A stretch of DNA of 64,000 bases from an uncultured Chloroflexia bacterium (GTDB lineage Bacteria > Chloroflexota > Limnocylindria > Limnocylindrales > CSP1-4). Every line of letters starts with the position of its first letter. Positions within the stretch are counted from its first letter, which is position 1. The DNA lies in assembly GCA_963814315.1 (NCBI GenBank), contig CAWFCG010000003.1:1025980-1089979 (forward strand), read 5' to 3'. The notes under the pieces were generated by a model. That model had not been told where the DNA came from and did no database searches. It was given only the letters and a program-made list of their open reading frames with translations. Of the stretch, positions 12,048-44,818 are shown one piece after another. Made by a program: the position numbers and the translations under genes.

Positions 12048-12475
12048 CTGGCTATCTGCTGGATACCACCGTCCTCCTCGACCACTCCACGGGTCGACGT
12101 GATGGCGTTGAGATGCTGGCGCGATTGTTCTCGGAAGCCGGATCGCTCTATGCCTGTGATATCACCACGAGTGAGGCGCTTTCGGGCGGCCCATCGCAGG
12201 AACGTGGGGTCATCCTGCGCCTGCTCGACGCACTGGAGTACATCGCCATCGACCCCGAAGGTGCGCGATGGGCCGGTGATCGGCGCCGCGAGCTACGAGC
12301 CCGCGGACGTCGCAGCCCACTCGGCGATGCCCTCATCGCTGCCGCGGCCTGGCGGATGGACGCCACGGTGGTCACCCGCAACCCCGCCGACTTCGAGCCC
12401 TTCGGTGTGTCAGTACTTGCGTACGGTGAGCCACCTCACGCCAACGCCGGCACGAAGCGGGGATCGACTCGGTAG
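12044..12475 (+). CDS. vapC: PIN-domain toxin VapC
   Basis: Carries the N-terminal LLDTTVLLD acidic motif and a later DALIAAAA pattern typical of VapC. Confidence 0.75.
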   Translation: MTGYLLDTTVLLDHSTGRRDGVEMLARLFSEAGSLYACDITTSEALSGGPSQERGVILRLLDALEYIAIDPEGARWAGDRRRELRARGRRSPLGDALIAAAAWRMDATVVTRNPADFEPFGVSVLAYGEPPHANAGTKRGSTR

Positions 12476-14270: not shown

Positions 14271-14272
14271 GC

Positions 14273-15286
14273 TCAGCCGACCTCACACAAAGGTGTATCG
14301 GGCGGGAAGTCGGCCAGCTCCAGCTCGGGATGGATGGCCCGTGCCAGCGAGGCCAGGCCCTGCATCAGGCGTGGTCCGGGGCGGGTGACGGGCACGTCGT
14401 CCACTGGTCGGACGTCGCCGTTGACGACAGCGGTCATCTGGTCCCAGCCAGGTCTGACGAAGACGTCCTCGGGACAGACGCCGTAGTTGGCGTCGCCCAG
14501 GATGATGACCTCCGGGTCGGCCACGATGAGCTCCTCAAGGGGGATGGCCCACGCCGCCGGATCGGCGGTTGTGATGGGGTCACCCCCGGCGAAGGTCACC
14601 ATGTCGGCCACGAAGGAGTCCGGCGCAGGGGCGTAGATCTCCGGCTCCGAGCCGACCTGGTAGAACGTCCGCGGCGTCGTCTCGGTCGCGGCCACCGCCT
14701 CGCTGATGGCGTCGAACCGGCTGCGCATCCGGGCTGTCATGGACGCGGCCTCGTCGGCGGCACCGACAGTCGTGCCGATGAGCTCGATGTCAGTCATCAC
14801 CGTCGGCAGGTCGGGGGCGTAGACGACCACGACCGGATAGCCCAGGTCGCGCATGCGCTCGATATCGTCGGGTGGGGTAAAGGAGTTGCCCGCCGCCAGC
14901 ACTAGATCGGGCTCCAACGCCACCACCTGCTCCATGTTCACCCCGGTGAAGCTGGCCACCGGGGTCAAGGCAGCCGCTTGGGGCGGGAAGTCGTCCCAGT
15001 CGGTGCGGCCGACCAGGCGATCACCGGCTCCGAGCGCGAACGCGATCTCGGTGTTGGCCGGGGAGAGGCTGATGATGCGCTGCGGTTCAGCCTCGATGGT
15101 GACCTCGGTACCCTCGTCATCGGTGACCGTCACCGGGAAGTCGGCGGCGGCGGCGATGGTGACCGGAGTCAATGGCGCCCACCCAAGGGTCAGTGCGGCC
15201 ATCAGGAACGCGGCGGCCACGGAGGCGACAGGAAAACTCCGGCCGCGATGCTTGCCGGAGCTTGAGTCCATGGTGCGTGTTTCCAC
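14273..15286 (-). CDS. btuF: periplasmic/lipoprotein substrate-binding protein, class III SBP (BtuF-like)
   Basis: Has a signal peptide and the pattern RIISLSPANTEIAFALGAGDRLVG. The ORF-track start at 15331 lies inside the riboswitch. I prefer the GTG at 15286, which is preceded by AAAGGGG; the ATG at 15271 is also possible. Confidence 0.7.
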   Translation of the reverse strand: METRTMDSSSGKHRGRSFPVASVAAAFLMAALTLGWAPLTPVTIAAAADFPVTVTDDEGTEVTIEAEPQRIISLSPANTEIAFALGAGDRLVGRTDWDDFPPQAAALTPVASFTGVNMEQVVALEPDLVLAAGNSFTPPDDIERMRDLGYPVVVVYAPDLPTVMTDIELIGTTVGAADEAASMTARMRSRFDAISEAVAATETTPRTFYQVGSEPEIYAPAPDSFVADMVTFAGGDPITTADPAAWAIPLEELIVADPEVIILGDANYGVCPEDVFVRPGWDQMTAVVNGDVRPVDDVPVTRPGPRLMQGLASLARAIHPELELADFPPDTPLCEVG

Positions 15287-15289
15287 GTG

Positions 15290-15440
15290 CTTCCCCTTTC
15301 TCTCGAAGGGCTGGCGCACGACCATGATCACGGCGACCGGACTTGCAGCTGGTGGCTGTTCACCGTAGCGGGACTGTGCCGGAATCTCACCGGCTTCGCG
15401 TGACGGAGGTCTTGCTCTTGAGTTGTGCCACTGAGTTTAC
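15290..15440 (-). promoter_or_regulatory. cobalamin (B12) riboswitch in the 5' leader of btuFCD
   Basis: The minus-strand sequence CTCAGTGGCAC...CGCGAAGCCGGTGAGATTCCGGCACAGTCCCGCTACGGTGAAC...AGCCACCAGCTG matches the cobalamin riboswitch core consensus (GGTGcc ... GGGAAnccGGTGaaAaTCCgg ... CCCGCcACTGTaA ... GCCACTG box), and it sits immediately upstream of an SBP/permease/ATPase operon. This is judged by eye against the remembered consensus. Confidence 0.6.
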
Positions 15441-15550
15441 GCCGCCCACGGCTCCGAAGCAGGGGTGATAAGTCACAGATAAGTGGTCCTCCCGATACTA
15501 CGGGCGACCGCCTCCACCGCCGGTCGGAACCGCCGGAGGAAGGGTTGTCC

Positions 15551-17083
15551 ATGAAAGGGCACATCCATGCACCGCTCCGCCGTCTCACATCCATGGCCGT
15601 GGCCGGAGGGCTATCGTTTTCACTCCTGCCTACGGCACCCTTGCCCGCCGCGGCAGCGGAGGCCCTGGACCCCACGGACCTGCCACGTTGTGCCGCGGTC
15701 AGTCGCTCTGCAGAACGCGACGGGCAGATCACCTCGCCTTGGGAAGTGGTCCTCGATGCGGACGGTGTCGTCACGGAGCATCGGATCACGTTGCGATACG
15801 GAGACGATGAAACCACGCTGCGGGTGGGTCCGCGTGGCTTATACCTGCAAGCTGGACCACGGCGGATGCTCCTCGGCGAGCGCTTCGACGAGGGCACCAA
15901 GCTGGCCATGATCGATATCGGCCGCGGCTGCCGACTGTGGGCGCGCCGCATCGATCGCCTGGCCTACCCCATCGGCGACCTCGATGACGCTCGCAAGCTG
16001 CGCTTATCCATGCATCGACTGGACACCGGTCGGTTCGAGGGCAGCCTTGACCTGGAGGTGGAGACGGGCGCCTCCGGCGGCCTGATTGACGGCGTCTGTA
16101 TCACCGACTGCGAGCCCAACGACGGCGATCTCTCGCTGTCCGCGTACCAGCCGGCCGGAGCGGCACAACCAGTACCCGCATTCGCTGCCGGCGGCTGGGC
16201 TGCCGGCAAGCTTCTGACCTATCGCTGGGGAGATGGCGCGGCACCACCGACGTGGGCACGAGATGCGTTGCAAGCGGCGGCTGATGACGTCGGCAGTACC
16301 TCCGAGGCTAGCGGGCCGCGGTTCGTCTTTCGCTCGGATGCCTCCAATGGCGTTCGCTACACCGGCGTCTTCCCCACCTACTGCAGTCGCAGTGGCATCG
16401 CTTGTGCCGCGCGCAATATGCCCACGTTCTGGAGCGTTTGGCTACGACCACACGGGACCGACTTCGCCTGGGGCACGCTCCGCTGGTGCCAGAAGGACGG
16501 CTCCAACGGTTGCTTCGACATCCGCCGCGTACTGCTCCATGAGCTCGGTCATGTCACCGGTCTGAACCACCCCTCGAGCGCGGGCTTCACGCTGGGGGTC
16601 CACGAGACGGTGATGCAGGCCATCACGCCTGCCAAGCCCAAGCCCGGCAGCTCCCGCCACTCCTTTGGACGCTGCGACGTCGCCACGTTGCAGGAACTCT
16701 ACGGCACACCCACCAACCAGACCGCCATTTCGACCTGCAACGACGTGACGACCCAGCTGGAGCTGAGCGCTGCCAGCAGCACCATCAGCGCCGGAGCCTC
16801 GGTGAAGCTGACCGCGGAGCTGCGCATCGTGAACAAGAGTGCCTACGGCGAGCTCGCCAACAACCCCCTGAATGGGCGCTCGGTGAAGCTCAAGTACCGG
16901 CGCGCGGGCAGCGATGACGCCTGGAATACCGCCTGGATGCGATCGGAGTACTCGTCTGGTCGCTACACCGCCACCATCGCCCCCGGGCAGACCTGGGAGT
17001 TCAAGGCCACGTTCCCCGCCCCTACGGACGAGGGAGTGCGCTACAGCACCTCGGAGATCGTGAAAGTGAAGGTACGGGATTGA
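15551..17083 (+). CDS. secreted metzincin-type zinc metalloprotease (HExxHxxGxxH)
   Basis: The MKGH... start has a GGAGGAAG RBS. It has a signal peptide and the zinc motif HELGHVTGLNH followed by a Met-turn-like VMQ. The C-terminal roughly 130 aa look like a beta-sandwich. Confidence 0.65.
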   Translation: MKGHIHAPLRRLTSMAVAGGLSFSLLPTAPLPAAAAEALDPTDLPRCAAVSRSAERDGQITSPWEVVLDADGVVTEHRITLRYGDDETTLRVGPRGLYLQAGPRRMLLGERFDEGTKLAMIDIGRGCRLWARRIDRLAYPIGDLDDARKLRLSMHRLDTGRFEGSLDLEVETGASGGLIDGVCITDCEPNDGDLSLSAYQPAGAAQPVPAFAAGGWAAGKLLTYRWGDGAAPPTWARDALQAAADDVGSTSEASGPRFVFRSDASNGVRYTGVFPTYCSRSGIACAARNMPTFWSVWLRPHGTDFAWGTLRWCQKDGSNGCFDIRRVLLHELGHVTGLNHPSSAGFTLGVHETVMQAITPAKPKPGSSRHSFGRCDVATLQELYGTPTNQTAISTCNDVTTQLELSAASSTISAGASVKLTAELRIVNKSAYGELANNPLNGRSVKLKYRRAGSDDAWNTAWMRSEYSSGRYTATIAPGQTWEFKATFPAPTDEGVRYSTSEIVKVKVRD

Positions 17084-17937
17084 GATCTTGCCAACGAACT
17101 CTGGCCATCCTGCTGCTGAGCCTGGCGCTACCGCTCGGAGCGGCCGCAGCAGACGCGGTCGAACCCTCCGCCACCCCGGATAGGGCACCGCAGGTGTGGC
17201 TCAACGGCGCCTTCGGACGAGTGCCTGGGGCTGATCCGGGCACGCCCGCGGCCGCCCCGCCGGACGGCAAACCGCTGGACGCCTGGTTGCGATCAGCACC
17301 ACTGACGCTGGAGACGGACGTGGCCCCGGAAGACCTGTTGTCGGTCGAGGTCACAGCCCGGCCACTCGACCGTGCTGCCACCGAGGAGTCGCTCTCAGAA
17401 GGCGCCACCATGTTCCCAGGTCCGGATGCGCCCGGTGTCGTCATCGTCACCGCCACCGTCACGACAGACCCGTATGGCATCAGCCGTCGCGCGTGGCTAC
17501 TGGAGATCCCGGACCGTAGCGGTGGCGAGGAGGCGCTCTTCGATATCCCTGGCCCGGTCGCCATGTTGAACTCAGCGGGCGGCGGCGTGGTCGGAGAGCC
17601 GGGCAACGGTTGCTATGCCTATCTTTGCGTGGATGTGGGCTATGAGACACCACCCTCCTCCCTGCCGGCGATGCCCGTCAACGTCGGCGAAGAGCTCACA
17701 GTCACGCTCTCCGACGGGTCAGCGATGTCCGGCTGGACTGGCAGCCTCGTACCCATCGGAGACAGTCGCGCTGTGACGCTTCAAGCGGACGACACCTTTG
17801 GAGCGAAGCCACAAGGCAGCGCCATACTCGTTGGCTTGGCGCCTCCGACCGCGGGTGAGTGGTTGCTACAAGTCCGCACGGACTTCGACCGCGAGCGCGG
17901 CTGGCAGTCCTTCCTGTATCGCCTCTTGGCCGAGTAG
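17080..17937 (+). CDS. secreted hypothetical protein, co-transcribed with the metalloprotease
   Basis: Overlaps the protease gene as ATGA. It has a cleavable signal peptide (LAILLLSLALPLGAAAADA) and no recognisable domain. Confidence 0.5.
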   Translation: MRSCQRTLAILLLSLALPLGAAAADAVEPSATPDRAPQVWLNGAFGRVPGADPGTPAAAPPDGKPLDAWLRSAPLTLETDVAPEDLLSVEVTARPLDRAATEESLSEGATMFPGPDAPGVVIVTATVTTDPYGISRRAWLLEIPDRSGGEEALFDIPGPVAMLNSAGGGVVGEPGNGCYAYLCVDVGYETPPSSLPAMPVNVGEELTVTLSDGSAMSGWTGSLVPIGDSRAVTLQADDTFGAKPQGSAILVGLAPPTAGEWLLQVRTDFDRERGWQSFLYRLLAE

Positions 17938-18399: not shown

Positions 18400-19491
18400 C
18401 TACTCGGTCCCGGCCTCATCGGACAGTGCCATCTGCTCCTTGATATGGCTGATGGAATCGATCGGAGATGGATCCACGCCGTACATGAATGCGAGATAGA
18501 CGCTGATGTAGTCACCCAGCACGACCCCGCTGAGGGCGTGTCCCAGCGGTCCCTGGCCGGAGGTCTGGACTTCGGTATGCCAGATCTGAGCCCTGTCGGC
18601 GAGATCGCCAAGGAGTGTGGCGCGCAAGGTGTTTCGCGGGTGCTCCAGCTCGCTCCGAAGCGAGACGATCGCCAGATGATCCCGTAGCGATTCGGGCTGC
18701 TCCAGGCCCACGACCATATTGTGGGTGGCCTCCGGCAGTTCCTCGACGACCGCGCTGCTCTTGCTGTTCTCGTTGAGCTGCGTCTTCCAGCGCCGCGCCA
18801 CCGGCGCCAGGAACGACGAGCCGGTGATGATGACGAAACGGTCCACCAGCGACCAGGCCAGTCGTTTGGCTGGGTTGTCCGCCGTGGGCACACCCGGCTC
18901 GCAGCGCGCCGACATCCCCCGGGCAGCGGTGATGCCGCTCGCGATCTCGGCCTCGTCGAGCTCCAGCACCCCGGCCTGCTGCAGAACACCCGCCACGATG
19001 GCCATCGACCAGCCCAACGAGGAGCGCGGCGAGCCACGAAAGGGGAAGGTCGCCAGCGGCAGGCGGGCTGCTCTCGCCACATTGCGCAGTGCACCACCAG
19101 CGGTCACGGCCACCATCGGACAGCGGCGCTCCAGCGCGGTCCGCAGTGCGCTGAGGGTCTCCTCGGTCTCGCCGCTGCGGGAGCTGGCTATGACCAGCGT
19201 GTCCGTGCCCACCCAGGCTGGCAGGTCGTAGCCACGCACGATCTCGACCGGGACGCTGATGCGGTCAGCCCAGATGCCCCTGACCAGGTCCGCCCCGATG
19301 GCGGAACCACCCATGCCCAGGATGGCCACCGACGCTGGGCGCTCAGGGGACAGCTCAAGCCCGCGTGAGATGCGCCAGCCCTCTCCGATCTGGTCCGCGA
19401 ACTCGGACACGGACCCAAGCATGCCGGCGCTGTCGGCATGTGCCATAGCGGCCGCGTCATCGATGATGTTGCGGTTTGCTTGCTGTTCCAT
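18400..19491 (-). CDS. SIS-domain bifunctional phosphoglucose/phosphomannose isomerase-like protein
   Basis: Has the SIS signature AILGMGGSAIGADL...LVIASSRSGETEETL. In actinobacteria this position is conserved next to pmm. Confidence 0.6.
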   Translation of the reverse strand: MEQQANRNIIDDAAAMAHADSAGMLGSVSEFADQIGEGWRISRGLELSPERPASVAILGMGGSAIGADLVRGIWADRISVPVEIVRGYDLPAWVGTDTLVIASSRSGETEETLSALRTALERRCPMVAVTAGGALRNVARAARLPLATFPFRGSPRSSLGWSMAIVAGVLQQAGVLELDEAEIASGITAARGMSARCEPGVPTADNPAKRLAWSLVDRFVIITGSSFLAPVARRWKTQLNENSKSSAVVEELPEATHNMVVGLEQPESLRDHLAIVSLRSELEHPRNTLRATLLGDLADRAQIWHTEVQTSGQGPLGHALSGVVLGDYISVYLAFMYGVDPSPIDSISHIKEQMALSDEAGTE

Positions 19492-19508
19492 GGCAGGTCC
19501 GATCCTCC

Positions 19509-21017
19509 CTATCCGCTGACCATACGATCGCCCTCGGCAAGCAGGGCGTCACGCAACTCGGGACTGCTAGCTTCGGTGTAGACGCGCACCAGCGGCTCGG
19601 TGCCACTGAAGCGGATCAGTAGCCAGGAGCCGTCATCGACCCAGAACTTGAAGCCATCGCCGGTGTCGAGCGGGATGCTGCGCGAGACCTGACGGCCGCC
19701 CAACTGCGCTGGCGAGTGCTCACCCAACTCATCGAGCAGTCGGGCCTTCAACGCCGGGTACGCATCGCGATCGGTGTGTACGTCGGTGCGCAGGTAGTAC
19801 GAGGGCCCGGCGACCTCATGGAGGTGCGCCACCGCCTGCGAGACGGAACCGCGGCCAGCCTCTCGCTCGCGCACGAAGAGATCGAGCAGCAGTAAGTCCG
19901 CGTAGATTCCGTCGCGCTCGGGCAGGTGCATGCCGAATCCGTAGCCGCCCGATTCCTCGCCACCCATCATGGCACCGGTCTCGATCATCCTGGGACCGAC
20001 GAACTTGAAGCCGACGGGCGTCTCATGAACCGCCACACCGTAACGCTCGCCGAGACGGAAGGCCATCGAGGTTTCGTTGATGGTGGTGACCACCGGTGCA
20101 TGCTGGCCACGGTGCTCAAGCATGTAGTACATGAGCAGGCCGTAGCACTGCAGCTGGTGGATGAAGACGCCGTTCTCATCGATGGCACCGGCGCGGTCGG
20201 CGTCCCCGTCCAGCACCAGCCCCAGGTCGTATCCGCCCGCAGCGACCGCGCCCAGCGCCTCATCGATGTGGGGCCTGATGGGCTCGGGATTGACGCCGCC
20301 GAACCAGGGGTTGCGCTCACTGTGGAGCTCATCCACGACGATCCTTCCGCCGGCCAGCAGTCGTCCGATCCAGCCCGCGCCGGAGCCGTAGAGCGGGTCT
20401 ACCAGCACGCGCATGTCGACCGCTTTCAAGCGATCCAGATCCAGCGTACGGCGCACGAAAGCTTCGTAGCCGATGTACGGATCGAAGCGCTCCACTTCGC
20501 CAGCAGCCTCAGCCTCGTCAAAGGCACGTCTGGGAGGCTGTTCAGCCGCACGGGCGGCGATGACCGCCTCGACCTTGTGAAGGATGGCCGGGTCGGCCGC
20601 GGCACCTGTGGGCGACTTGATCTTGAAGCCGTTGTCGGTCCAGGGGTTGTGTGAGGCGGTGATCATGACCGCGCAGGCCGAGCCGCGTTCCACCACCTCG
20701 TAGGACGTCATCTGGGTCGGGATCGCCCCAGCCGCGAAGACGACCTTGATATCGTGGGCGAGCAGGACCTCTGCGGCAGCCGCCGCGAAGTACTCACTCG
20801 CGAAGCGGCGGTCGTAACCGACGACCACCCCATTGGCCGTGGTCCCCTGTTCGATGACCCATTCGGCGACGCCCTGCGCACAACGACGGACGTTATCGTA
20901 AGTGTAGTCCTCGCCGATCCTGGCGCGCCAGCCATCGGTCCCAAAGACGATGGGCGGCGCCGTGGGCGGAGTGTCGGACACGGGCGACTGCCCTCCTTTA
21001 GCTTCCTTGCTGGACAT
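19509..21017 (-). CDS. manB: phosphomannomutase/phosphoglucomutase
   Basis: Has the active-site TASHNP (ITASHNPWTDNGFK) and the Mg-binding DGDADR motif. The likely start is MSSKEAKGG (complement of cat at 21015-21017); the ORF-track extension is spurious. Confidence 0.85.
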   Translation of the reverse strand: MSSKEAKGGQSPVSDTPPTAPPIVFGTDGWRARIGEDYTYDNVRRCAQGVAEWVIEQGTTANGVVVGYDRRFASEYFAAAAAEVLLAHDIKVVFAAGAIPTQMTSYEVVERGSACAVMITASHNPWTDNGFKIKSPTGAAADPAILHKVEAVIAARAAEQPPRRAFDEAEAAGEVERFDPYIGYEAFVRRTLDLDRLKAVDMRVLVDPLYGSGAGWIGRLLAGGRIVVDELHSERNPWFGGVNPEPIRPHIDEALGAVAAGGYDLGLVLDGDADRAGAIDENGVFIHQLQCYGLLMYYMLEHRGQHAPVVTTINETSMAFRLGERYGVAVHETPVGFKFVGPRMIETGAMMGGEESGGYGFGMHLPERDGIYADLLLLDLFVREREAGRGSVSQAVAHLHEVAGPSYYLRTDVHTDRDAYPALKARLLDELGEHSPAQLGGRQVSRSIPLDTGDGFKFWVDDGSWLLIRFSGTEPLVRVYTEASSPELRDALLAEGDRMVSG

Positions 21018-21395
21018 CCGGCCCGGCGTGGACAGGACGCGCTCGAATGGTACCCCGACCCGTCGCCACTGAAGCATCCAGCGCTCCGTACTCCCACGGG
21101 TCCGCACTCGCACGCCACCGACCCCAAGGCGTCGGCCACATTTGCGTGGCACTCACGTACGTGACACCCTGCCCGTATCACTCGTCGTTCTGTTGCCTCG
21201 TGGGCAAACCACAGGCACGCTGGACAGCGATGCGGACTCTCACGCAGACCAGCGACCCGCTGCGTCGCGACCTCGTCACTTATGTGCGCGGTGGTCAAAC
21301 GCCAAGGGGAGCGCGGATCGCGGCGCGCCACGATCCGTTGGGCAGGCGCAGGGAACCGGATGCTTGCCGTCGCTAGACTTGCCGCTGGAACGCCG

Positions 21396-22300
21396 ATGAC
21401 GGAAGGAAGCTGGCGACGGGCACCAAGCGGGAGACTGACACGGATACCGACGCGGAGACGGAGACGGAGACGCACACGGAGCCATCGGCCAGCGGGGCCA
21501 CGGAGCGCGCGACCAGGCCGCTGTTCGTCATCGGCTCTCCGCGCTCGGGCACGACGCTGCTGCGCCTGATCCTCGACTCGCACCCGCGCATCTCGTGTGG
21601 CGAGGAAACGCATTTCCTGCGTGACCTGGAGGCGATCGTCGGGCGCGACTGGGAGTTGGTGGCCACCTACGGCCTGGATCGCGAGTGGTGGCTCGGGCGC
21701 ATCCGCTCGCTCTACGCTGAGTTCCAGTCGGAGGTCCTGGCACGTTCGGGCAAAGCACGCTGGGCTGAGAAGGACCCCACCTACACGCTCCATCTCGACT
21801 TCATCGAGGCGCTCTTTCCGGACGCCCTGTACGTGCACCTCCTGCGTGACGGGCACGACGTGGTGGCCAGCTTCCGCGATCGCTGGGGCTACACCTCGGC
21901 TGCTCGAGCGGCGCGGGGCGAGTGGGCACGCTACGTCTCGGCAGCCCGGGCCCACCGCGACCGCTTGCCGGATGATCGCTTCCTGGAGCTGCGCTACGAA
22001 GCCCTGGTGGGCGACCCCGAAACCGAATGCCGTCGGCTCTTCGAATTCCTCGCCGAGGACTGGGATCCAGCCGTGCTCACGTTCGACCCGTCTGCGCACC
22101 GCGCCACTGACCGCTATCAGTGGTTCACAGCTGGGCGCCGACAAGCCGGCGGTGATGACGCCACCATCTACCGGTCGCGGGTGGGAACCGGTGGTCGTTC
22201 GCTCGACCCCTTCCTGCGTACCCTGCTCAGACGGCGCAACGGCGACCTGCTGCGGGAGCTTGGCTACCTTGGTGACCCCGGTGGCGGTGCGGGCCGATGA
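21396..22300 (+). CDS. sulfotransferase 1 (PAPS-dependent); start unresolved and a possible frameshift in the N-terminal repeat
   Basis: Has the 5'-PSB loop PLFVIGSPRSGTTLL and the motif LLRDGHDVVASF. No ATG/GTG/TTG lies in frame between the stop at 21376 and the PSB loop. An ATG at 21396 (MTEG...) is in a different frame. Confidence 0.6.
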
Positions 22301-23379
22301 CGAAGCAACGGCCGCTGCGCGTCGGGTTCCTGCACGTCGGCCGCGAGCACAGCGGGCTGCGACGCTACGGCGCCATCCTCGCCGCCGAAGCTGCCACGCG
22401 GCCCGATGTGGTGGTCATCGAGAGTGACGCCGGCGATCGCGGAGCGTCGTGGTCTGATCTCCGCCGGGCGGCGCGACGCTTGCGCGGCTGCGACGTGGTC
22501 CACCTGCAATGGAAGCTCGCCGACTGGGATCCTCGCCTGGGCGGCATCCCGCGCATGGAGGTCGTGCTGCGATCGCTACGTCGTCCGTTGGTCGTCACGC
22601 TGCATGACGTCTTCTCGCGTGAGGGACTGTGGGAGCGATTCCTCTCCCCCGCCGCGGTCGGGCTGCGACGCCTGGGGCACGCCGCGAGCCGCGTGGTCGT
22701 CCACTCAGAGGAAGAGCGCGGCCGACTCCGGGGCCTGCTGCCGGAGGGCAAGGTCGAGGTCGTACCGCACTTCGTGGAGGTACGCGGGCCGCTGCCCGAC
22801 CGAACCGGGGCACGATCAGCCCTCGGCCTCAGCGATGCCCGGGTCATCACGCTGCTGGGGTATCTCACCCGCCGTCGTGGACATCGGCTGGTCATCGATG
22901 CCCTGCGCGAACTGCCTGATGAGGTCACCGCGCTCTTCGTCGGCTCGGTCATCGAGGGCCGCGACTCCGTGGGACGGGCGCTACAGGCATACGCAGCCGA
23001 AGCCGGCCTGGCGGAACGCGTCCGCTTCATGGGCTACATCCCCGACGACGAGCTGGTGCGCGTGCTGGCCGCCACCGACGTGGCCCTCTGCCCATTCGAG
23101 CGCATGTCGGCCTCGGGCGCTCTGGCGACGTGGCTCTCAGCCGGCCGGCCCATCGTGGCCTCCGACCTGGCGCCATTCCGGGAGCTTGCGACCATGCAGC
23201 CGGGGGCGTTGCACCTGTTCCGGCCCTACCAGCCAGCCGCCTTGGCGCGATGCATCGGCGCCACGCTGGACCTCTCCACGAACGAGCCCGATCCCAATGT
23301 GCGGGCACTGGCACAGCGCCTGGCGACACCCAGGGTCATTGACCGCTATGTCGGCCTCTACCGAGCCGCAGCGAGCTAG
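22297..23379 (+). CDS. GT4-like (GT-B) glycosyltransferase, copy 1
   Basis: 360 aa with a GT-B C-terminal domain bearing a degenerate EX7E region (PFERMSASGALATWLSAGRPIVASD). It overlaps the sulfotransferase as ATGA and is a paralog of 25598-26689. Confidence 0.55.
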   Translation: MTKQRPLRVGFLHVGREHSGLRRYGAILAAEAATRPDVVVIESDAGDRGASWSDLRRAARRLRGCDVVHLQWKLADWDPRLGGIPRMEVVLRSLRRPLVVTLHDVFSREGLWERFLSPAAVGLRRLGHAASRVVVHSEEERGRLRGLLPEGKVEVVPHFVEVRGPLPDRTGARSALGLSDARVITLLGYLTRRRGHRLVIDALRELPDEVTALFVGSVIEGRDSVGRALQAYAAEAGLAERVRFMGYIPDDELVRVLAATDVALCPFERMSASGALATWLSAGRPIVASDLAPFRELATMQPGALHLFRPYQPAALARCIGATLDLSTNEPDPNVRALAQRLATPRVIDRYVGLYRAAAS

Positions 23380-24473
23380 AGCAAGTCGTCTCGGCCTTCG
23401 TCCCTGAGGCGATCGACCACTTGCTTGACATCCTGGGCGGCCTGCGCCGAGCAGACCAGTAGCGCGTCGGGTGTGTCCACCACGATGACGTCACCCAGGC
23501 CCACCACGGCCACCGTCCGGCCACCTGCCGCGTGCACGAAGACACCCCGCCCATCCACGCTGATGACGCGGGCCGGAGGCTCCTCGTCGATGACCGGCTC
23601 CCCCGCATCACTGCGCTGATCACGCAATGCAGACCAGGACCCCAAGTCGCTCCAGCCGACGGAGATCGGAACTACAGCCACCTGGCCCTCGAGCGAAGCC
23701 GGCTCCAGCAAGGCGTAGTCGATCGATGTCGCCCGCAAGCGGTCGTACGTTTGCTCCATCGCCGTGCCGGGCCAGCCGGCTTCGAGTCCACGCGGCGCGG
23801 CAGCGATCCAGTCACCGATGGGGCCGCTGATATCTGGGGAGTGGCGCGCCAGGCCCGCCAGTACGGAAGCGCGACGCCACACGAAGATGCCCGCGTTCCA
23901 AAACGCCGAGCGTAAGGCGATGAGCTCGCGTGCCCTCGCCAGATCGGGCTTCTCCTCGAAGCGTTCGACGCGGTAGCTCTCACACCCGCCGAACACGGTG
24001 ACGTCCCCGCCGGCGATGACATAGCCGTAACCGGTGGAGGGTTCTGTCGGCTCCACGCCCAGCGTCACCAAGTCACCGGCGGCGGCACGTTCGCCGGCGC
24101 TGGCCAACGCCGCACGGAAGCCTGCCTCGTCCGCGACCGCCTGATCGGCAGGGAGCACCACCATGACGTCGTCGGGTCGATCGATGGCGTGGGCGGCAAG
24201 CGCCACCGCGGCGGCCGTGTTGCGGCCCATGGGCTCACCGAGGATGTTGGCCGCCGGGATGGTCGGCACAAGCTCGCGCACCAGGCCCGCGTGGCGCGCG
24301 TCGGTCACGATGTAGATGTCTGCCGGCTCGATCAACGGGGCCAGACGGCTGACACCGGCTTCGAGGAGGCTACGTCCACCTTCGAGAAGTGGAAGGAACG
24401 GCTTGGGTCGGCGGGCTCTGCTCAGGGGCCAGAGTCGGGTGCCGCCCCCGCCGGCCATGATGACTGCGTACAT
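23376..24473 (-). CDS. manC: mannose-1-phosphate guanylyltransferase (GDP-mannose pyrophosphorylase)
   Basis: Has the nucleotidyltransferase N-terminus MYAVIMAGGGGTRLWPLS. The start is MYAV, the complement of cat at 24471-24473. It is convergent with GT4 copy 1 and overlaps it by 4 nt. Confidence 0.8.
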   Translation of the reverse strand: MYAVIMAGGGGTRLWPLSRARRPKPFLPLLEGGRSLLEAGVSRLAPLIEPADIYIVTDARHAGLVRELVPTIPAANILGEPMGRNTAAAVALAAHAIDRPDDVMVVLPADQAVADEAGFRAALASAGERAAAGDLVTLGVEPTEPSTGYGYVIAGGDVTVFGGCESYRVERFEEKPDLARARELIALRSAFWNAGIFVWRRASVLAGLARHSPDISGPIGDWIAAAPRGLEAGWPGTAMEQTYDRLRATSIDYALLEPASLEGQVAVVPISVGWSDLGSWSALRDQRSDAGEPVIDEEPPARVISVDGRGVFVHAAGGRTVAVVGLGDVIVVDTPDALLVCSAQAAQDVKQVVDRLRDEGRDDLL

Positions 24474-24544
24474 GCCAAGATTGTGCACGACGATGGCGAC
24501 CACCCGCCGGGCCCCCGGGACAACGAGGCAGGAAGACGACGAGC

Positions 24545-25576
24545 GTGACTGAGGAACCGACCAACACCACCACCATGGAAACGGCGACCGACCACCTGGA
24601 CTCGCCGCCGCCTCGGGGCCTTGACCCGAGCCTGCCGCCGGACGCCAACCCTGAGCCATCGCCTATCGGCCTCGCCGATATGTGGCGCATCGCGCGCAAG
24701 ACCTATCGTGCCGAGCGACGCTACTACCTCAAGCTCGAGCGCAGCCGGCCCATGACGTCGAAGCGGCTGACCAGCTCGCTTCTGCCCAAGCTGGAACGAC
24801 CGATCTTCATCATCGGTGCGGCCCGCTCGGGTACTACCTTCCTGGGCGATTGCATCGGCCGCATCCCGGAGGTCACCTATCACCACGAACCGCCGGCCAC
24901 CAAGGCTGCCGGGCGATACGTGTACGAGGACCTGTGGGGGTTCCGCCGCTCGCGATGGTTCTTCCGACTCGTCTACAGCTGGCTGGTGCGCGTGGAGCGC
25001 GATGGAGACCTGCGTTTCAGCGAGAAGACGCCGACCAACATCTTCCTCATCCCGTTCCTGGCCAGGGCCTTCCCCGACTCACAGTTCATCCACATCGTCC
25101 GCGACGGCCGCGACGCCGCCAGCTCACACATGCATAAGCCCTGGCTACGCGCCGAGGACGCCTGGTCGGGCGAGCGCGAGCCGGGCGGCTATCTCCACGG
25201 CCCCTGGCCCAAGTTCTGGGTGGAGCCTGCGCGGCGTGAGGAATTCACCAAGACCAGCGATGCCCGACGCATGGCCTGGGCCTGGCGCCGCTACACCGAG
25301 ACCGGACTGCGCGAAGGCCCTGCCCTGGGTCAGCATCGCTACCACGAGCTGCGCTACGAAGACCTGGTGCGACAGCCACTCGACGAGGGCGAACGCCTCC
25401 TCGATTTCCTTGGTATCGAGCGCAAAAGATCGCGTGACACGTTCCTCTCGGCGACCATGCGCGCGGATGATTCCTCGGTCGGGACCTGGCGCGACACTTT
25501 CTACCCCTCCGAGCTCACCGAGATCGATGCCGAGGCGGGCGAGCTGCTGCGGCAACTCGGCTACGACGACGACTGA
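24545..25576 (+). CDS. sulfotransferase 2 (PAPS-dependent)
   Basis: Has the PSB loop IFIIGAARSGTTFL and the motif IHIVRDGRDAASS. It begins MTEE, like the out-of-frame ATG of sulfotransferase 1. Confidence 0.7.
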   Translation: MTEEPTNTTTMETATDHLDSPPPRGLDPSLPPDANPEPSPIGLADMWRIARKTYRAERRYYLKLERSRPMTSKRLTSSLLPKLERPIFIIGAARSGTTFLGDCIGRIPEVTYHHEPPATKAAGRYVYEDLWGFRRSRWFFRLVYSWLVRVERDGDLRFSEKTPTNIFLIPFLARAFPDSQFIHIVRDGRDAASSHMHKPWLRAEDAWSGEREPGGYLHGPWPKFWVEPARREEFTKTSDARRMAWAWRRYTETGLREGPALGQHRYHELRYEDLVRQPLDEGERLLDFLGIERKRSRDTFLSATMRADDSSVGTWRDTFYPSELTEIDAEAGELLRQLGYDDD

Positions 25577-25597
25577 GCGCCATGGCGCCGCCTGACC

Positions 25598-26689
25598 ATG
25601 GTCGCTGAGCTGCGCGCTCTCGGCTTCCTGCACCTGGGTCGCAATGAGAGCGGCGTACGCCGCTACGGCCAGCTCATCGCGGATGAAGCCAGGGGACGCT
25701 CGGGCATCGTCGTCAGCGAAGCCGAGGCGGGCCGTATCGATGAGTCGTCAGAGCAGCTGACCCAGGTGGCCGCGGAACTGGCCTCTTCTGATGTGGTCGT
25801 GATGCAATGGAACCGCCGAGGCTGGGGCAAGAACGGCCGCTCGCTGCCGCGCCTGCTGCGCTTCCGCCGCGCCTACAAGGGCGCGCTGTTGGTGACGATG
25901 CACGATGTCTTCGACCGCGATGGCCTGCGGCAACGCCACCTCCAACCGGACGTCTGGTCATTGCGTTGGCTGGGTCGGACAGCCGAGCGCATCGTGGTGC
26001 ATTCCCAAATCGAGGTGGAACGGCTGCGCGGCATCATCCCCATCGACAAGATCCGTGTCATCCCGCACTTCGTCGAGAACCGCCGACTCTCGCTGAGCCC
26101 CGAGGAGGCGCGCGCCAAGCTGGGATTGTCCGACCGGCGCGTCGTCACGCTGCTGGGGTTCGTGTACGGCCGCAAGGGCCACCGCTATGCCGTCGACGCG
26201 GTCCCGTTCATGCCTGACGACGCCGTGATGGTCTACGCGGGCGGTCCGGTCGCGGGTCGGACGTTCGTCTACGACCTGGCGCTGTCAAGGGCAGAGGAAC
26301 TGGGCTTGGGGGAGCGGTTCCGCATCACCGGCTACCTCGACGATGCCGCCTGGGAGACATGGATCGCGGCCACACACCTCGCCATCCTGCCGTTCACCGA
26401 CCTGTCGGCTTCGGGCTCGCTCTCGTCTTGGATCTCAGCCGGCAAGCCCATGCTCGTGTCCGATCTGCCGGGAACCCGCGAGTACGGCCGTCGTGTCCCC
26501 GGTGCACTCCACTTCTTCGGTCCGCCAGAAGCCTGGCCGCTCGGCTCCGCAATCAGTGAACTACTGGCGGAGCCACTGCCAGATCCGGACCCGGGCGTGC
26601 AGCGGCTGGCGCGCGAGCTGAGCATGGAACGAACGGTCGATCGCTATCTCGCGGTGGCACGCGAAGCGCTGGCGGTCCGCCGCGGCTGA
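25598..26689 (+). CDS. GT4-like (GT-B) glycosyltransferase, copy 2
   Basis: A paralog of 22297-23379 with the same N-terminal LGFLHLGR..SG.RRYG motif and C-terminal SASGSLSSWISAGKPMLVSD. Confidence 0.55.
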   Translation: MVAELRALGFLHLGRNESGVRRYGQLIADEARGRSGIVVSEAEAGRIDESSEQLTQVAAELASSDVVVMQWNRRGWGKNGRSLPRLLRFRRAYKGALLVTMHDVFDRDGLRQRHLQPDVWSLRWLGRTAERIVVHSQIEVERLRGIIPIDKIRVIPHFVENRRLSLSPEEARAKLGLSDRRVVTLLGFVYGRKGHRYAVDAVPFMPDDAVMVYAGGPVAGRTFVYDLALSRAEELGLGERFRITGYLDDAAWETWIAATHLAILPFTDLSASGSLSSWISAGKPMLVSDLPGTREYGRRVPGALHFFGPPEAWPLGSAISELLAEPLPDPDPGVQRLARELSMERTVDRYLAVAREALAVRRG

Positions 26690-26695
26690 TCGGGC

Positions 26696-27895
26696 TTACA
26701 CGATCCCGGCGTCGTCGGCGAGCAGCCCCGCCTTGTCGATGCGCTCCCAGGGCAGATCCAGGTCCTCTCGGCCGAAGTGGCCATAGGCCGCCGTCTGCTG
26801 GTAGATGGGCTGCCACAAGTCGAGGGCACTGATGATGCCACCTGGTCGCAGATCGAAGTGACGCTCGATCAGCTTCTGGATGTCAGCATCAGCGATGACA
26901 CCGGTGCCGAACGACTCGACCGAGATCGATACCGGCTCGGCGATGCCGATGCCGTACGCCAGCTCCACCTCGAAACGATCGGCCAGACCGGCGGCGACCA
27001 CGTTCTTGGCCACCCAGCGGGCGGCATAGGCGGCCGAACGGTCGACCTTGGTCGGATCCTTGCCGCTGAAGGCGCCGCCGCCGTGACGTGCCATGCCGCC
27101 GTAGGTGTCGACGATGATCTTGCGGCCGGTGAGGCCGGCATCACCCATGGGTCCACCCTGAACGAAGCGGCCGGTGGGATTGACATGCATGACCGGGTCC
27201 TGTGCACGCAGAACGGGCTCGATGCTGGGCAGGATGACGGCCTCGATGATCTCTTCACGCAACTGCTCAGCACGGACGTCTGGGTCGTGCTGGCTGGAGA
27301 CGACGACCGTCGGCACGCGCACAGGAACACCACGCTCGTACTCGACGGTGACCTGCGTCTTGCCATCGGGTCGCAGATAGTGCAGCTGTCCACTCTTGCG
27401 AACCTCAGCCAGGCGGCGCGCCATGCGATGTGCCAGCGCGATCGGCAGCGGCATCAGCTCCGGTGTCTCGCGGCAGGCAAAGCCGAACATCATGCCCTGG
27501 TCACCGGCGCCGAGCTGGTCACGGTCGACGCCCTGGGCGATGTCTGACGACTGCTCTTTGACCGAGACGATGGTGCCGCAGGTCTCGTAGTCGAAGCCGT
27601 AGTCCGACTTGGTGTAGCCGATCTTCCGGACCGTTTCACGCACGATGGCCTGGAAGTCGACGTAGCCCTCGGTCGAGATCTCGCCCAGCACCAGCACCAG
27701 GCCGGTGGTGGTCGCCGTCTCACAGGCGACTCGTGGGTCGCGAGCCTTGGGGTCGGTCGCTTTTCGCGCGTTCGCTTCACCGATGAGGGCATCGAGGATG
27801 GCATCCGAGATCTGGTCGCACATCTTGTCGGGATGGCCTTCGGTGACCGACTCCGAGGTGAACAGATACTGCGTGGCGTCGGCGATGCTGGTCAT
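26696..27895 (-). CDS. metK: S-adenosylmethionine synthetase
   Basis: Carries the GHPDK motif within high-identity MetK-like sequence. Confidence 0.9.
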
Positions 27896-28015
27896 GTGCG
27901 TCGGGCTCTCCTGTCGTGGGGTCGGCGGAAGCGTAGCAGAGACGTCAGCTCAAACCCGCTGACTGGGCCATCGGACCCACTACCCCGTGTCCGCCGGCAG
28001 GCCACTTCGGGACCG

Positions 28016-28789
28016 ATGGCCGTGCCGCGACAGCGGGGTCTGCCGCATGCTGAAGTCCAGATGGCGCATCTTCCTCAATCCATCGATCCCAAGCTGGCGT
28101 CGGCCCTGCTCGCTGACTGGGGATTTCTGGCTGATCCCGACCTGCCCGATCACCCTGGGCCGGCCTACCTGCTGGTGGCCATCCGAGCCAAGCCGACGCT
28201 CCGCCACTACGACCCTGAGCTGGCCGAATACTGGATCACCGGTCCCAAGGGCCACGGCGTGCGCGAGACCATCACCTTCGCCAGTCGCATGCCGCGTCAG
28301 ATCGAGTTCAGCTGGGGCATGATCTCCGTGGTCGACCGCAAGGGCGTCGCCAATCGCTACCTCACCTTCGGGGGGACGCTGCGGGCGGAGCGTGTCGACG
28401 GTGAGGTCATCTGTGTCTTCGAGTCGCCGGCCCCGCTGCTGCGGCGCGGCGGCCACTCCCAGGGCTGGGACACGGGGGCACACAGCGTGGGCGGATTCTT
28501 CGGCCGATTTCGTGCCGCCGCCGGTTACGAGCACGACTTCGAGACGCTCGCCGCGGAGATGGATCCGGTCACGCGCTACGCGGCATTCGTCAACGAATTC
28601 GTGGTGCGCTATCGCTCTAGCGAATACCTGCGCGACCACTACCCCAAGCTGTGGACCATCATGGTCAACGAGGAGAAGCGGTTGCGGCGCCAGCACCCAA
28701 CTGAATGGGCCGGTGGCTTGGAGTTGCTTGAATCCACGCAGCGTGCCGCCTCAGGCGGCAGCCTCGCCTCACTGCTGCGTCCGTTCTAG
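28016..28789 (+). CDS. hypothetical protein
   Basis: An ORF with coding-like composition and no recognisable motif. The start is uncertain (MAVP at 28016 or MAHL at 28061). It is convergent with ahcY. Confidence 0.4.
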   Translation: MAVPRQRGLPHAEVQMAHLPQSIDPKLASALLADWGFLADPDLPDHPGPAYLLVAIRAKPTLRHYDPELAEYWITGPKGHGVRETITFASRMPRQIEFSWGMISVVDRKGVANRYLTFGGTLRAERVDGEVICVFESPAPLLRRGGHSQGWDTGAHSVGGFFGRFRAAAGYEHDFETLAAEMDPVTRYAAFVNEFVVRYRSSEYLRDHYPKLWTIMVNEEKRLRRQHPTEWAGGLELLESTQRAASGGSLASLLRPF

Positions 28790-44668: not shown

Positions 44669-44818
44669 CGGGAGCCTCCGGGATGACGGGTCGAATGGGG
44701 ATGAGTCTCAGATGAGCCAGTTGCGCCGCCATGTGCCGCAGGTGTGAGTTCTCAAAGAAAGCGCGACAGGCTGCCTCGCACCATTGCGCAATCACGTCGC
44801 GACAGCGAGGATGCAGGG

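Follow-up and report, generated by a model that had tools for sequence, protein, structure and literature searches.

Two gene pairs, each composed of a sulfotransferase (ST) followed by a glycosyltransferase (GT), were found interleaved with three GDP-mannose supply genes in a 64-kb stretch of DNA (the window) from Limnocylindrales (Chloroflexota), an uncultured soil and freshwater lineage. An ST1-like protein, an ST2-type protein, and a GT of the SASG type make up a three-part module that recurs across phyla. With modest confidence, we favor the explanation that the locus provides cytoplasmic steps in building a sulfated glycan, using this recurrent module within a block of genes kept in Limnocylindrales. 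The genes concerned are as follows.

18400-19491, minus strand: bifunctional phosphoglucose/phosphomannose isomerase (PGI/PMI)-like SIS protein, fructose-6-P to mannose-6-P (Pfam bact-PGI_C/SIS, E 7e-46)
19509-21152, minus strand: phosphohexomutase of the PMM/PGM/GlmM superfamily, longest open reading frame (four Pfam PGM_PMM domains)
21410-22300, plus strand, predicted start: ST1, TPST/NoeE-like PAPS sulfotransferase (Pfam Sulfotransfer_3, E 1e-40)
22297-23379, plus strand: GT1, GT-B/GT4-like glycosyltransferase of the SASG subfamily (Glyco_trans_1_4, 55.7 bits; Glyco_transf_4, 42.2 bits)
23376-24503, minus strand: ManC-like mannose-1-phosphate guanylyltransferase, GDP-mannose synthesis (Pfam NTP_transferase and ManC_GMP_beta-helix)
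24545-25576, plus strand: ST2, PAPS sulfotransferase of a second subfamily (Pfam Sulfotransfer_3, E 9e-26)
25598-26689, plus strand: GT2, paralogue of GT1, SASG subfamily (Pfam Glyco_trans_1_4 and Glyco_transf_4)
59819-61285, minus strand: sulfatase (Pfam Sulfatase, signal peptide, and CSPGR)

The predicted genes of the locus are real, and metK follows GT2 on the minus strand. The ST-GT pairs and the mannose genes are on opposite strands and are not a single operon; the pairs are two small, separate transcription units. As the earlier note had claimed, the first pair is translationally coupled, with an ATGA stop/start overlap at 22297-22300, and GT2 starts 21 nt past ST2. At the DNA level, the pairs reach no more than 68% similarity, over 170 nt, and the GTs are 43% and the STs 27% identical, which excludes duplicates made by the assembly. 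Their description as two paralogous pairs holds for GT1 and GT2, which are close paralogues, but not for ST1 and ST2, which belong to different subfamilies that each have a counterpart of their own in Cyanobacteria. The neighbors are housekeeping genes (metK, ahcY, an mtnA-like gene, and an iron ABC importer), and two uncharacterized secreted proteins are encoded just upstream, at 15425-17937.

Pfam domains bore out the GDP-mannose gene set. These genes had been called actinobacterial, but the close matches of the locus genes were all from metagenome-assembled genomes (MAGs) of Limnocylindrales or Chloroflexota. The PGI/PMI-like protein scored 276 bits against the NCBIfam “bifunctional PGI/PMI” subfamily NF006426, whose cutoff is 295, and the position of its gene is kept across the Limnocylindrales loci. 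The phosphohexomutase probably starts further in than its longest reading frame (the orthologue in a relative, L001, is called at 512 aa), and every NCBIfam match was under the equivalog cutoff, so its assignment is to the superfamily and not to one sugar. The ManC reading frame reaches 24659, with a start by homology at ~24473-24503 (375 aa in L001), and the match of ManC to TIGR01479 (GMP_PMI; 267 bits) was confined to the GMP part.

ST1 had been placed at 21396-22300 (905 nt), but the ATG at 21396 sits in another frame, which hits a stop at ~21572. The ST1 frame is open from 21377, and no ATG, GTG, or TTG was found in it from there to the PSB loop (GSPRSGTT, 21533-21556); its first canonical start, at 21656, is past the loop. 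ST1 would instead start at CTG 21410, the codon adjoining the GTG start of its relatives. The lack of a canonical start codon in this genome is a point against our explanation. The dN/dS of ST1 against its nearest relatives was 0.11-0.12, and it is therefore a live gene. Against four relatives, ST1, GT1, ST2, and GT2 had dN/dS values of 0.07-0.30 (0.07-0.14 for GT2), and all four genes are under purifying selection.

Judged by Sulfotransfer_3 matches and PAPS motifs, both STs are PAPS-type, as had been proposed. The PAPS-binding motifs are invariant among 22 ST1 and 27 ST2 orthologues, supporting a PAPS-sulfotransferase signature in both predicted proteins. The loops GSPRSGTT and GAARSGTT (in ST2) were present as described before, while the 3'-PB motif of ST1 reads RDGHD, not RDGRD. 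A PAPS-sulfotransferase fold is also supported for ST2 by its AF2 model (pLDDT 81), for which all Foldseek matches down to E 1e-4 were PAPS sulfotransferases, with TPST the best. The best solved relatives of ST1 were likewise the tyrosylprotein sulfotransferases TPST1 and TPST2 (E 3e-17), which have GxPRSGTTL, CGEET, KDP, and RDG...S in common with it.

The fact that both STs have TPSTs as their best solved relatives counts against the sulfation of a glycan. ST1, and perhaps ST2, could sulfate tyrosines of proteins or peptides, as TPST and RaxST do, in a locus that glycosylates and tyrosine-sulfates an S-layer, secreted, or other protein; the two secreted proteins at 15425-17937 would be in keeping with this. 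However, NoeE, the fucose sulfotransferase of the Nod factor, which ST1 matched weakly, has this motif set too, as do STs that overlap or are fused to a GT within polysaccharide clusters. Furthermore, no precursor peptide, peptidase-type exporter, or RaxX/RaxSTAB-like gene was found at the locus. We consider tyrosine sulfation very unlikely. TPST1/2 and NoeE resemble the locus STs in the 5'-PSB loop, CGEET (ST1), the KDP or KTP lysine, the RDG...S 3'-PB motif, and overall fold, at 19-30% identity. The gene context of the locus STs is one of carbohydrates rather than peptides, and ST2 differs in having HHE for GEE, a basic helix conserved near its N terminus (residues ~43-63), and 35 extra residues inserted behind the 3'-PB motif.

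GT1 and GT2 both exceeded the gathering scores of Glyco_trans_1_4 and Glyco_transf_4. They contain the motif SASG..L..W.S.G.P, where S and W stand in for the two EX7E glutamates, and this motif is invariant across two phyla. The SASG-type GTs do form a distinct GT-B subfamily with a degenerate EX7E, as had been stated. The region that usually reads NG(V/I)D reads HFVE. The subfamily had 305 representatives at E<=1e-30. The AF2 model of GT1 (pLDDT 89) had HepE, GlgM, MshA, SPS, BshA, and PimA as its top Foldseek matches. The retaining GT4 enzymes HepE/Alr3699, PimA, MshA, BshA, and sucrose-phosphate synthase have in common with GT1 and GT2 the GT-B fold (TM ~0.7-0.77), the Pfam GT4 domains, and a (K/R)GH that follows the first strand of the C-domain, but differ in the EX7E glutamates and the N-domain motifs.

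The EX7E glutamates of GT4 enzymes touch the donor sugar and ribose (PMC13104830, PMC3898925), and the transferase activity of GT1 and GT2 is therefore not assured. The SASG-type proteins might be catalytically dead and serve the STs as substrate-binding or scaffolding partners, as the loss of both glutamates, the HFVE replacement, and the physical complex suggested by translational coupling and ST fusion would allow. We regard this as unlikely. Some GT-B enzymes are active although one or both glutamates are missing, such as WsaF (PMC3898925) and GumI (PMC13104830), and members of the family are found without an ST as well as in fusions with GT2, GT61, and GT4 domains. Limnocylindrales and Cyanobacteria share SASG, W, HFVExR, HD, and (K/R)GH without variation, and the ten invariant polar residues (H103, D104, E140, H158, E161, R163, H196, S271, S273, and W279) form the pattern of an active site rather than of decay. 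The low dN/dS values also speak against dead proteins.

At least 24 species-level loci of Limnocylindrales have retained the block PGI/PMI–PMM–ST1–GT1–ManC–ST2–GT2–metK–hyp–ahcY. Five core genes had identical order in 24 distinct species-representative loci, over which GT1 identity falls to 55%, and the same order was found on two further, more divergent contigs. We read the block as lineage-wide and vertically kept. In every Limnocylindrales locus examined, the pairs flank manC and adjoin PMM and PGI/PMI. This conserved place beside PMI, PMM, and ManC suggests mannose as the sugar. Because the whole 10-gene block is syntenic, including metK and ahcY, the location beside manC is weak evidence for a GDP-mannose donor. 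Another explanation, possible though doubtful, is that the pairs are unrelated to GDP-mannose, with the interleaving a frozen gene order in a little-rearranging lineage and the GTs using another nucleotide sugar. The equal synteny of metK, ahcY, the iron importer, and other unrelated genes agrees with this, as do the separate transcription units of the pairs on the opposite strand and the cyanobacterial homologues, which are not beside manC. On the other hand, manC lies exactly between the pairs, with a convergent stop overlap with GT1 and a gap of ~40-70 nt to ST2, in all of the loci, including those where GT1 identity is as low as 55%.

Gene context was then compared for nine SASG-GT members outside Limnocylindrales. 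The genes for the trio of ST1-like protein, ST2-type protein, and SASG-type GT lie side by side, overlap, or are fused within Wzx/Wzy/ABC polysaccharide clusters rich in STs, in Cyanobacteria and in at least one unassigned bacterium. In Leptolyngbya sp. PCC 7375 and Nodosilinea nodulosa, the order is ST2-type, ST1-like, GT with a 4-bp ST/GT overlap; in Okeania sp., it is ST, GT, ST2-type; and in Lyngbya, an ST is immediately upstream of the GT. Two 63%-GC contigs (L058/L059) encode an ST1-like::GT fusion of 749 aa; two genes upstream of it lies an ST2-type gene, at 48% identity, and Wzx is also encoded. The clusters of Nostoc, Leptolyngbya FACHB-261, and L056 have no ST and contain a polysaccharide pyruvyl transferase instead, and GT::pyruvyl-transferase fusions were found. 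In Fischerella (L034), the GT is at a contig edge. The SASG-type GTs of the cyanobacterial and L058/L059 clusters have the same motifs as GT1 and GT2, at 31-39% identity, and the ST2-type proteins are 48-53% identical to ST2 over ~90% of its length, N-terminal helix included. The ST1-like protein, with a P-E-T-H/F-F motif, is directly upstream of the GT, with the same 4-bp overlap or a fusion. The same ST-before-GT order and overlap, the fusion, and the ST2 counterparts beside GTs support the functional coupling of ST and GT. All of the clusters hold further GT2/GT4 genes, and those with enough flank also hold Wzx, Wzy, Wzz, or ABC exporters. There, the module sits amid many such genes and further STs, whereas in Limnocylindrales it is alone beside the GDP-mannose genes with its GT duplicated.

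Neither in the window nor in its relatives did we find, within ~10 kb, a gene for a priming transferase, flippase, polymerase, chain-length regulator, or exporter, which counts against a sulfated glycan. The product could instead be a small cytoplasmic sulfated glycoside, either a membrane sulfated mannosyl glycolipid or a sulfated compatible solute, with two sugars and two sulfates on one lipid or small-molecule acceptor. This is rather improbable, although just two GTs and two STs without export or polymerization genes across ~25 genomes, and a block that behaves as core genome amid housekeeping genes, would fit it. Many of the nearest structural matches of GT1 also use small acceptors (MshA, BshA, SPS, GlgM, and PimA), but these matches are generic for GT4, and every examinable SASG-type GT outside Limnocylindrales was in a multi-GT polysaccharide cluster or fused to polysaccharide enzymes. 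PAPS-synthesis genes were not found within the 64-kb window, and PAPS synthase and sulfate adenylyltransferase are reported missing from most freshwater Chloroflexi MAGs of one study, which are incomplete (PMC6169038). This also counts against the sulfated glycan. The sulfatase noted earlier, 35 kb away, is a real secreted sulfatase, but its link to the locus is unsupported; the intervening genes are unrelated and include mfd, pth, ybeY, a two-component system, and ion channels.

It had been said that the locus cannot be mapped to a characterized pathway. The homologous cyanobacterial and L058/L059 clusters indeed have no characterized product, which counts against our explanation, yet the module maps to ST-carrying cyanobacterial polysaccharide clusters, of which only that for synechan (xss) has been studied. 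Most cyanobacterial ST genes lie in clusters presumed to make extracellular polysaccharides, and the xss cluster on plasmid pSYSM of Synechocystis sp. PCC 6803, where cytoplasmic STs and GTs are encoded together, makes the sulfated exopolysaccharide synechan (PMC8205485). The second xss-cluster ST, XssE judging by gene order, is 24% identical to ST2 over 76% of ST2 length. No SASG-type GT was detected on pSYSM by tblastn, which again counts against our explanation, and xss encodes a Wzx, a Wzy, a PCP, and regulators of its own, unlike the Limnocylindrales locus. The likeness is at the family level only. Sulfated capsules or exopolysaccharides with ST genes inside polysaccharide clusters are described for Vibrio sp. 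KMM 8419 and Cobetia marina KMM 1449, and are predicted for Actinoplanes missouriensis wps-1 (PMC13390465). These are complete Wzx/Wzy-type clusters of cultured organisms, likened here by gene content.

The mycobacterial sulfolipid-1, sulfomenaquinone, and sulfated GPL pathways, against which the locus had been compared, also use PAPS sulfotransferases, and Stf1 and Stf9 were distant structural matches of the locus STs. This comparison falls with the actinobacterial framing, and these pathways were rejected as relatives, being from a different phylum; the locus has no pks, mmpL, papA, or Stf0-type enzyme.

In the sulfated-glycan explanation, each SASG-type GT would attach one hexose, mannose from GDP-mannose by gene context, to a growing and probably lipid-linked glycan on the cytoplasmic side. 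Its partner ST would then use PAPS to esterify a hydroxyl of that or a neighboring sugar, and the product would be a sulfated surface glycan or glycolipid. The donor sugar, the order of reactions, the acceptor, and the sulfate ending up on a glycan at all are inferred. Since the closest relatives are in ST-rich cyanobacterial polysaccharide clusters, this lineage probably produces either a glycolipid or a polymer of sugars that is sulfated. If so, this would be a product of uncultured Chloroflexota that nobody has yet seen.

Two gene pairs, each a sulfotransferase (ST1, ST2) followed by a glycosyltransferase (GT1, GT2), were found among genes of GDP-mannose synthesis, as listed here from the ORF listing and Pfam.

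18400-19491, minus strand: SIS/bact-PGI_C isomerase (PGI/PMI)
19509-21152, minus strand: four-domain phosphohexomutase (PMM; PGM_PMM I-IV)
End at 22300, frame open from 21377, plus strand: ST1, Sulfotransfer_3
22297-23379, plus strand: GT1, GT4-like glycosyltransferase
23376 to about 24503, minus strand: ManC-type nucleotidyltransferase (NTP_transferase plus ManC beta-helix)
24545-25576, plus strand: ST2, Sulfotransfer_3
25598-26689, plus strand: GT2, GT4-like glycosyltransferase

GT2 is followed by metK, a conserved hypothetical gene and ahcY, and the G+C content is about 67% along the whole window. With Pfam, all three families of the GDP-mannose pathway (PMI, PMM and GMP) are present at the locus, and NCBIfam assigned the locus genes to the same families. 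The NCBIfam scores were 276 against a cutoff of 295 for the PGI/PMI, 263 against 439 for the best match of the mutase, Arch_GlmM, and 267 against 373 for the ManC-type protein with GMP_PMI. Because these scores fall below the equivalog cutoffs, mannose specificity of the three sugar-nucleotide enzymes is plausible but not established. The ATGA overlap of ST1 and GT1, a pair that the earlier note had called translationally coupled, was confirmed in the DNA. The two pairs had also been called paralogous; this holds for GT1 and GT2, which are true paralogues with 43% identity, but identity between ST1 and ST2 is just 27%. At the DNA level the pairs have negligible similarity, which rejects misassembled or collapsed duplicates. 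There were no further sulfotransferase or glycosyltransferase copies elsewhere in the window, and a scan of 21000-27000 gave no sigma-70 promoter or terminator above shuffle expectation.

Both sulfotransferases belong to the PAPS-dependent class, as the earlier note had proposed. ST1 scored 140.8 bits with Sulfotransfer_3 (cutoff 27) and 33.4 with Sulfotransfer_1 (cutoff 22), and the values for ST2 were 91.9 and 41.7. Both PAPS-binding motifs, the PSB loop and the 3'-PB region, are present in each protein and invariant among its orthologues. The PSB loop is GSPRSGTT in ST1 (21533-21556; 22 orthologues) and GAARSGTT in ST2 (27 orthologues). The 3'-PB regions, LLRDGHDVVAS and IVRDGRDAASS, respectively, align with RDGRasvhS of the tyrosylprotein sulfotransferases (TPSTs); the ST1 motif is thus RDGHD and not of the RDGRD type previously described. 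The best solved relatives of ST1 are TPSTs (E 3e-17), with which it shares GxPRSGTTL, CGEET, KDP and RDG...S, and its SCGEETH, EKDP and PRSGTT align with the catalytic motif set of TPST. In TPST2, the catalytic glutamate E99 lies in the CGEE-like motif, K158 is the lysine of KDP and R78 is the arginine of the PSB loop. The sole NCBIfam match of ST1, with the Nod-factor sulfotransferase NoeE, was weak, and the predicted sulfotransferase fold of ST1 is assigned from sequence only. ST2 diverges further. HHE stands in place of GEE, the N-terminus forms a basic helix that is conserved, 35 residues are inserted, and YHHEPP and EKTP replace the CGEE-like and KDP motifs of TPST. The AF2 model of ST2 (pLDDT 81) predicts a sulfotransferase fold, since every Foldseek match in the PDB to E 1e-4 was a PAP(S)-binding sulfotransferase and nothing else.

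The start of ST1 required revision. The gene had been placed at 21396-22300, a span of 905 nt, and the ATG at 21396 is in another frame that terminates near 21572. The ST1 frame is open from 21377, and none of its codons ahead of the PAPS loop is ATG, GTG or TTG; the first canonical in-frame start, at 21656, lies past the loop. Most relatives have a GTG start, with a GGAG-like sequence before it, 28-41 codons ahead of the point where the loop motif ends. In that region the window and its close relative L001 have a CTG (21410 in the window) right behind GGAAGGAAG, and a 3-nt deletion would be consistent with this pattern. A TTG at 21379, considered by analogy with L001, is out of frame in the window. 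L001 is one T shorter, which puts its TTG in frame for ST1, and it is the odd one out, since the extra T of the window is also present in the short-read MAG locus L003. In both L001 and L003, an ATG precedes the first strand of ST1 by two codons; the window has AGG there. Small indels among close relatives fall exactly at this start (window 21379-21560), and start-codon turnover in ST1 appears to be ongoing. The N-terminal tail of ST1, encoded at 21440-21480, is an acidic Thr/Asp/Glu repeat, TDTDTDAETETETH, with an imperfect 6-nt repeat in the DNA; it varies in length and sequence among relatives and is missing in most. A pseudogene is not supported, given an unbroken frame, a dN/dS of 0.11 and 93-96% identity over the catalytic domain. 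Since the gene is intact apart from its start and evolves under purifying selection (dN/dS 0.11-0.12 against its two closest relatives), we treat ST1 as functional with a candidate non-canonical start.

The glycosyltransferases had been described as a distinct GT4-like subfamily with a degenerate EX7E region, and the structural model, the alignment and the size of the subfamily all bear this out. The AF2 model of GT1 (pLDDT 89, pTM 0.87) has the two-Rossmann GT-B fold, and the nearest PDB structures are the GT4 enzymes HepE, GlgM, MshA, SPS, BshA and PimA. GT1 matched Pfam Glyco_trans_1_4, Glyco_transf_4 and Glycos_transf_1 above cutoff (55.7, 42.2 and 40.6 bits). GT2 was just over the cutoffs with 33.6 and 29.5 bits, and under it for Glycos_transf_1 (18.7). 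In GT4 enzymes, the first glutamate of EX7E sits close to the donor's anomeric carbon, and ribose is bound by the second (PMC13104830, PMC3898925). GT1 shares the fold of these retaining enzymes, but when aligned to HepE and canonical GT4 neighbours it lacks both glutamates. In place of EX7E it has S271-A-S-G followed by W279 (S-A-S-G-x4-W), and GT2 has SASGSLSSW; the motif, after which we name the SASG subfamily, is invariant within it. The subfamily comprises 305 representatives of 50%-identity clusters at E<=1e-30 and is common in Cyanobacteria. SASG, W, HFVExR, HD and (K/R)GH are invariant between Limnocylindrales and Cyanobacteria. The loss of both glutamates leaves room for SASG-type proteins being non-catalytic, but the replacement residues are invariant and some members are fused to other glycosyltransferase domains, making this very unlikely.

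Next, conservation of the neighbourhood was assessed. The order PGI/PMI–PMM–ST1–GT1–ManC–ST2–GT2 is kept in 24 distinct species-representative loci, across which GT1 identity falls to 55%, and in most of them metK, the hypothetical gene and ahcY follow. Two more divergent contigs have the same gene order, and in four other long loci one gene gave partial matches only. The dN/dS values of ST1, GT1, ST2 and GT2 are 0.07-0.30. Together with the retained order, this indicates that the locus is stably kept in the lineage by selection. Gene order is by itself a poor guide to function, because the unrelated housekeeping genes next to it show the same degree of synteny. The MAGs with close homologues of GT1 and ST2 carry the labels Candidatus Limnocylindrales, Chloroflexota or 'uncultured Chloroflexia', which rules out an actinobacterial origin. 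In the literature, no papers were found that combine Limnocylindria with sulfotransferase or exopolysaccharide.

Several observations concern single loci or assemblies. Two loci of MAG MFD09779.bin.2.43 (L009 and L022) each carry a full syntenic block including metK and ahcY, with ST2 88-89% identical to that of the window; this MAG is probably a mix of two related genomes. In the long-read MAG loci L021, L022, L029-L031 and L060, protein matches within the block are fragmented and gene calls are split, consistent with uncorrected indels, and therefore single-base frame features in long-read assemblies need caution. In the divergent Limnocylindria contig L061, a gene for a PAS-GGDEF diguanylate cyclase (12351-14273) directly follows GT2 on the same strand, a single case suggestive of the connection with c-di-GMP that is common among exopolysaccharide loci. 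The hypothetical gene between metK and ahcY (27833-28789, probably about 28064-28789) has no Pfam or NCBIfam match, and it keeps its position in the majority of those Limnocylindrales loci that extend far enough to cover it. Two co-directional genes at 15425-17937 encode apparently secreted proteins of 552 and 285 aa without a Pfam match, the first with a zinc-protease-like HELGHxxGLxH motif; this pair is kept upstream of PGI/PMI in L001 and L061.

Nine contexts of SASG-type glycosyltransferases outside Limnocylindrales were then compared. All nine are polysaccharide clusters with multiple glycosyltransferases, and Wzx/Wzy/Wzz or ABC exporters are present where the flank suffices. In Leptolyngbya sp. 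PCC 7375 and Nodosilinea nodulosa, a sulfotransferase with the ST1-like P-E-T-H-F motif lies upstream of the glycosyltransferase with a 4-bp overlap, and before it is a sulfotransferase 50-51% identical to full-length ST2, N-terminal helix included. Okeania has sulfotransferases on both sides, the downstream one 53% identical to ST2, and a Lyngbya contig has one directly upstream. In two contigs of 63% G+C (L058 and L059), an ST1-like domain and the glycosyltransferase are fused in a single protein of 749 aa; two genes upstream is an ST2-type gene with 48% identity, and alongside are four more sulfotransferases and a Wzx flippase. The Nostoc, Leptolyngbya FACHB-261 and L056 clusters have no sulfotransferase, and each contains a polysaccharide pyruvyl transferase, in Nostoc directly upstream of the SASG-type gene; fusions of the glycosyltransferase with pyruvyl transferase also exist in the subfamily. 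In Fischerella, the gene is at the contig edge and its upstream flank lies beyond the contig. In each of the contexts seen with known upstream neighbours, the SASG-type glycosyltransferase is either paired or fused with a sulfotransferase, or has a pyruvyl transferase in its cluster or in the polypeptide itself. As adjacency, overlap and fusion recur across phyla, coupling of sulfotransferase and glycosyltransferase is supported. A protein tyrosine as the target of the sulfotransferases is highly improbable, since ST1-like genes overlap or fuse with the glycosyltransferase in polysaccharide clusters and no precursor-peptide or Rax-like genes were found in the window or its relatives.

Genes for further GT4-like proteins, of about 355 aa, are present in L033 (Nostoc; 9199-10272), L052 (9403-10479), L056 (7341-8447), L051 (10581-11642) and L053 (3115-4176). 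In three clusters such a gene is directly downstream of the SASG-type gene. The aligned Nostoc protein also lacks EX7E and has ILTSG in its place; the other four are assumed to be equivalent from size, Pfam matches and position only. Fused GT::GT proteins, P0244 and P0245 among them, may unite both types in one polypeptide.

Gene sets of sulfotransferases plus glycosyltransferases for sulfated glycans are already known as a kind. Cyanobacterial sulfotransferase genes lie mostly in polysaccharide clusters, and the xss cluster of Synechocystis sp. PCC 6803 makes the sulfated polymer synechan (PMC8205485). Sulfated capsules are also reported in marine Vibrio and Cobetia. The window genes are not xss orthologues: ST2 reaches only 24% identity with one xss sulfotransferase, and no full-length SASG-type relative was found on plasmids, including the xss plasmid pSYSM. 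What is new is the specific three-protein module, the EX7E-less glycosyltransferase subfamily and the occurrence as a stand-alone conserved block in an uncultured Chloroflexota lineage. The window pairs are a minimal version of the recurrent ST/ST/GT module of sulfotransferase-rich polysaccharide clusters, with the glycosyltransferase duplicated. The view of the locus as an unmappable actinobacterial pathway, taken in the earlier note, is not upheld.

The most likely role, which we favor by a little over even chance, is cytoplasmic sugar addition and sulfation during surface-glycan assembly: a sugar would be added on the cytoplasmic side and then sulfated while the glycan is assembled. The position beside manC, PMM and PGI/PMI suggests that this sugar would be mannose. 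The cyanobacterial homologues are surrounded by exporter and polymerase genes, whereas the Limnocylindrales locus has none: no priming phosphoglycosyl transferase, flippase or ABC exporter, or polymerase or co-polymerase was found in the window or within 8-10 kb on either side in the relatives. Because such assembly and export genes are missing nearby, a small sulfated glycolipid or solute as the product is a serious alternative, if a somewhat unlikely one. Also, no PAPS-synthesis genes (sat/cysDN, cysC) were found among the roughly 45 annotated ORFs of the window. Most freshwater Chloroflexi MAGs, though incomplete, have been reported without PAPS-supply genes (PMC6169038).

Some other genes of the window were also noted. 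The sulfatase at 59819-61285 is a genuine secreted enzyme of the formylglycine type (CSPGR), but its suggested relevance to the locus 35 kb away found no support, as there is no linkage and unrelated genes intervene. Past the sulfatase, on the opposite strand (within 59819-62746), is a gene whose product carries calcium-binding repeats of the bacterial thrombospondin type-3 kind. The window also encodes an ATPase of the AAA_16/STAND type that has a LuxR (GerE) DNA-binding domain, and a response regulator paired with a histidine kinase (53206-55611 and 44744-46848). They are of the same general types as the synechan regulators XssQ/R/S; these families are common and the genes are 20-30 kb from the locus.

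For enzymology, the subfamily raises the question of what catalysis, if any, occurs in a GT4 fold without both signature glutamates. The recurrent unit of an ST1-like sulfotransferase, an ST2-type sulfotransferase and an EX7E-less GT-B, with its natural fusions, is a concrete target for research on cyanobacterial exopolysaccharides. The Limnocylindrales version, with four genes and no other glycosyltransferases close by, is the simplest for reconstitution; it is worth experiment as the simplest place to learn the role of the module. More speculatively, and in our judgment unlikely, SASG-type GT-Bs could be a functional class whose EX7E acids were replaced because they act on or deliver anionically decorated sugars, with Limnocylindrales using a minimal core-genome module for a constitutive, sulfated, mannose-containing envelope glycan. 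Limnocylindrales are abundant, uncultured bacteria of soil and freshwater. If that reading were true, carbohydrate sulfate esters in soils and lakes would have a source outside Cyanobacteria that had gone unrecognised. Apart from this reading, a module for sulfation and glycosylation kept across an uncultured Chloroflexota lineage would widen the known spread of sulfated glycans, and it may be one biological origin of the ester sulfate in organic matter of soils and freshwater.
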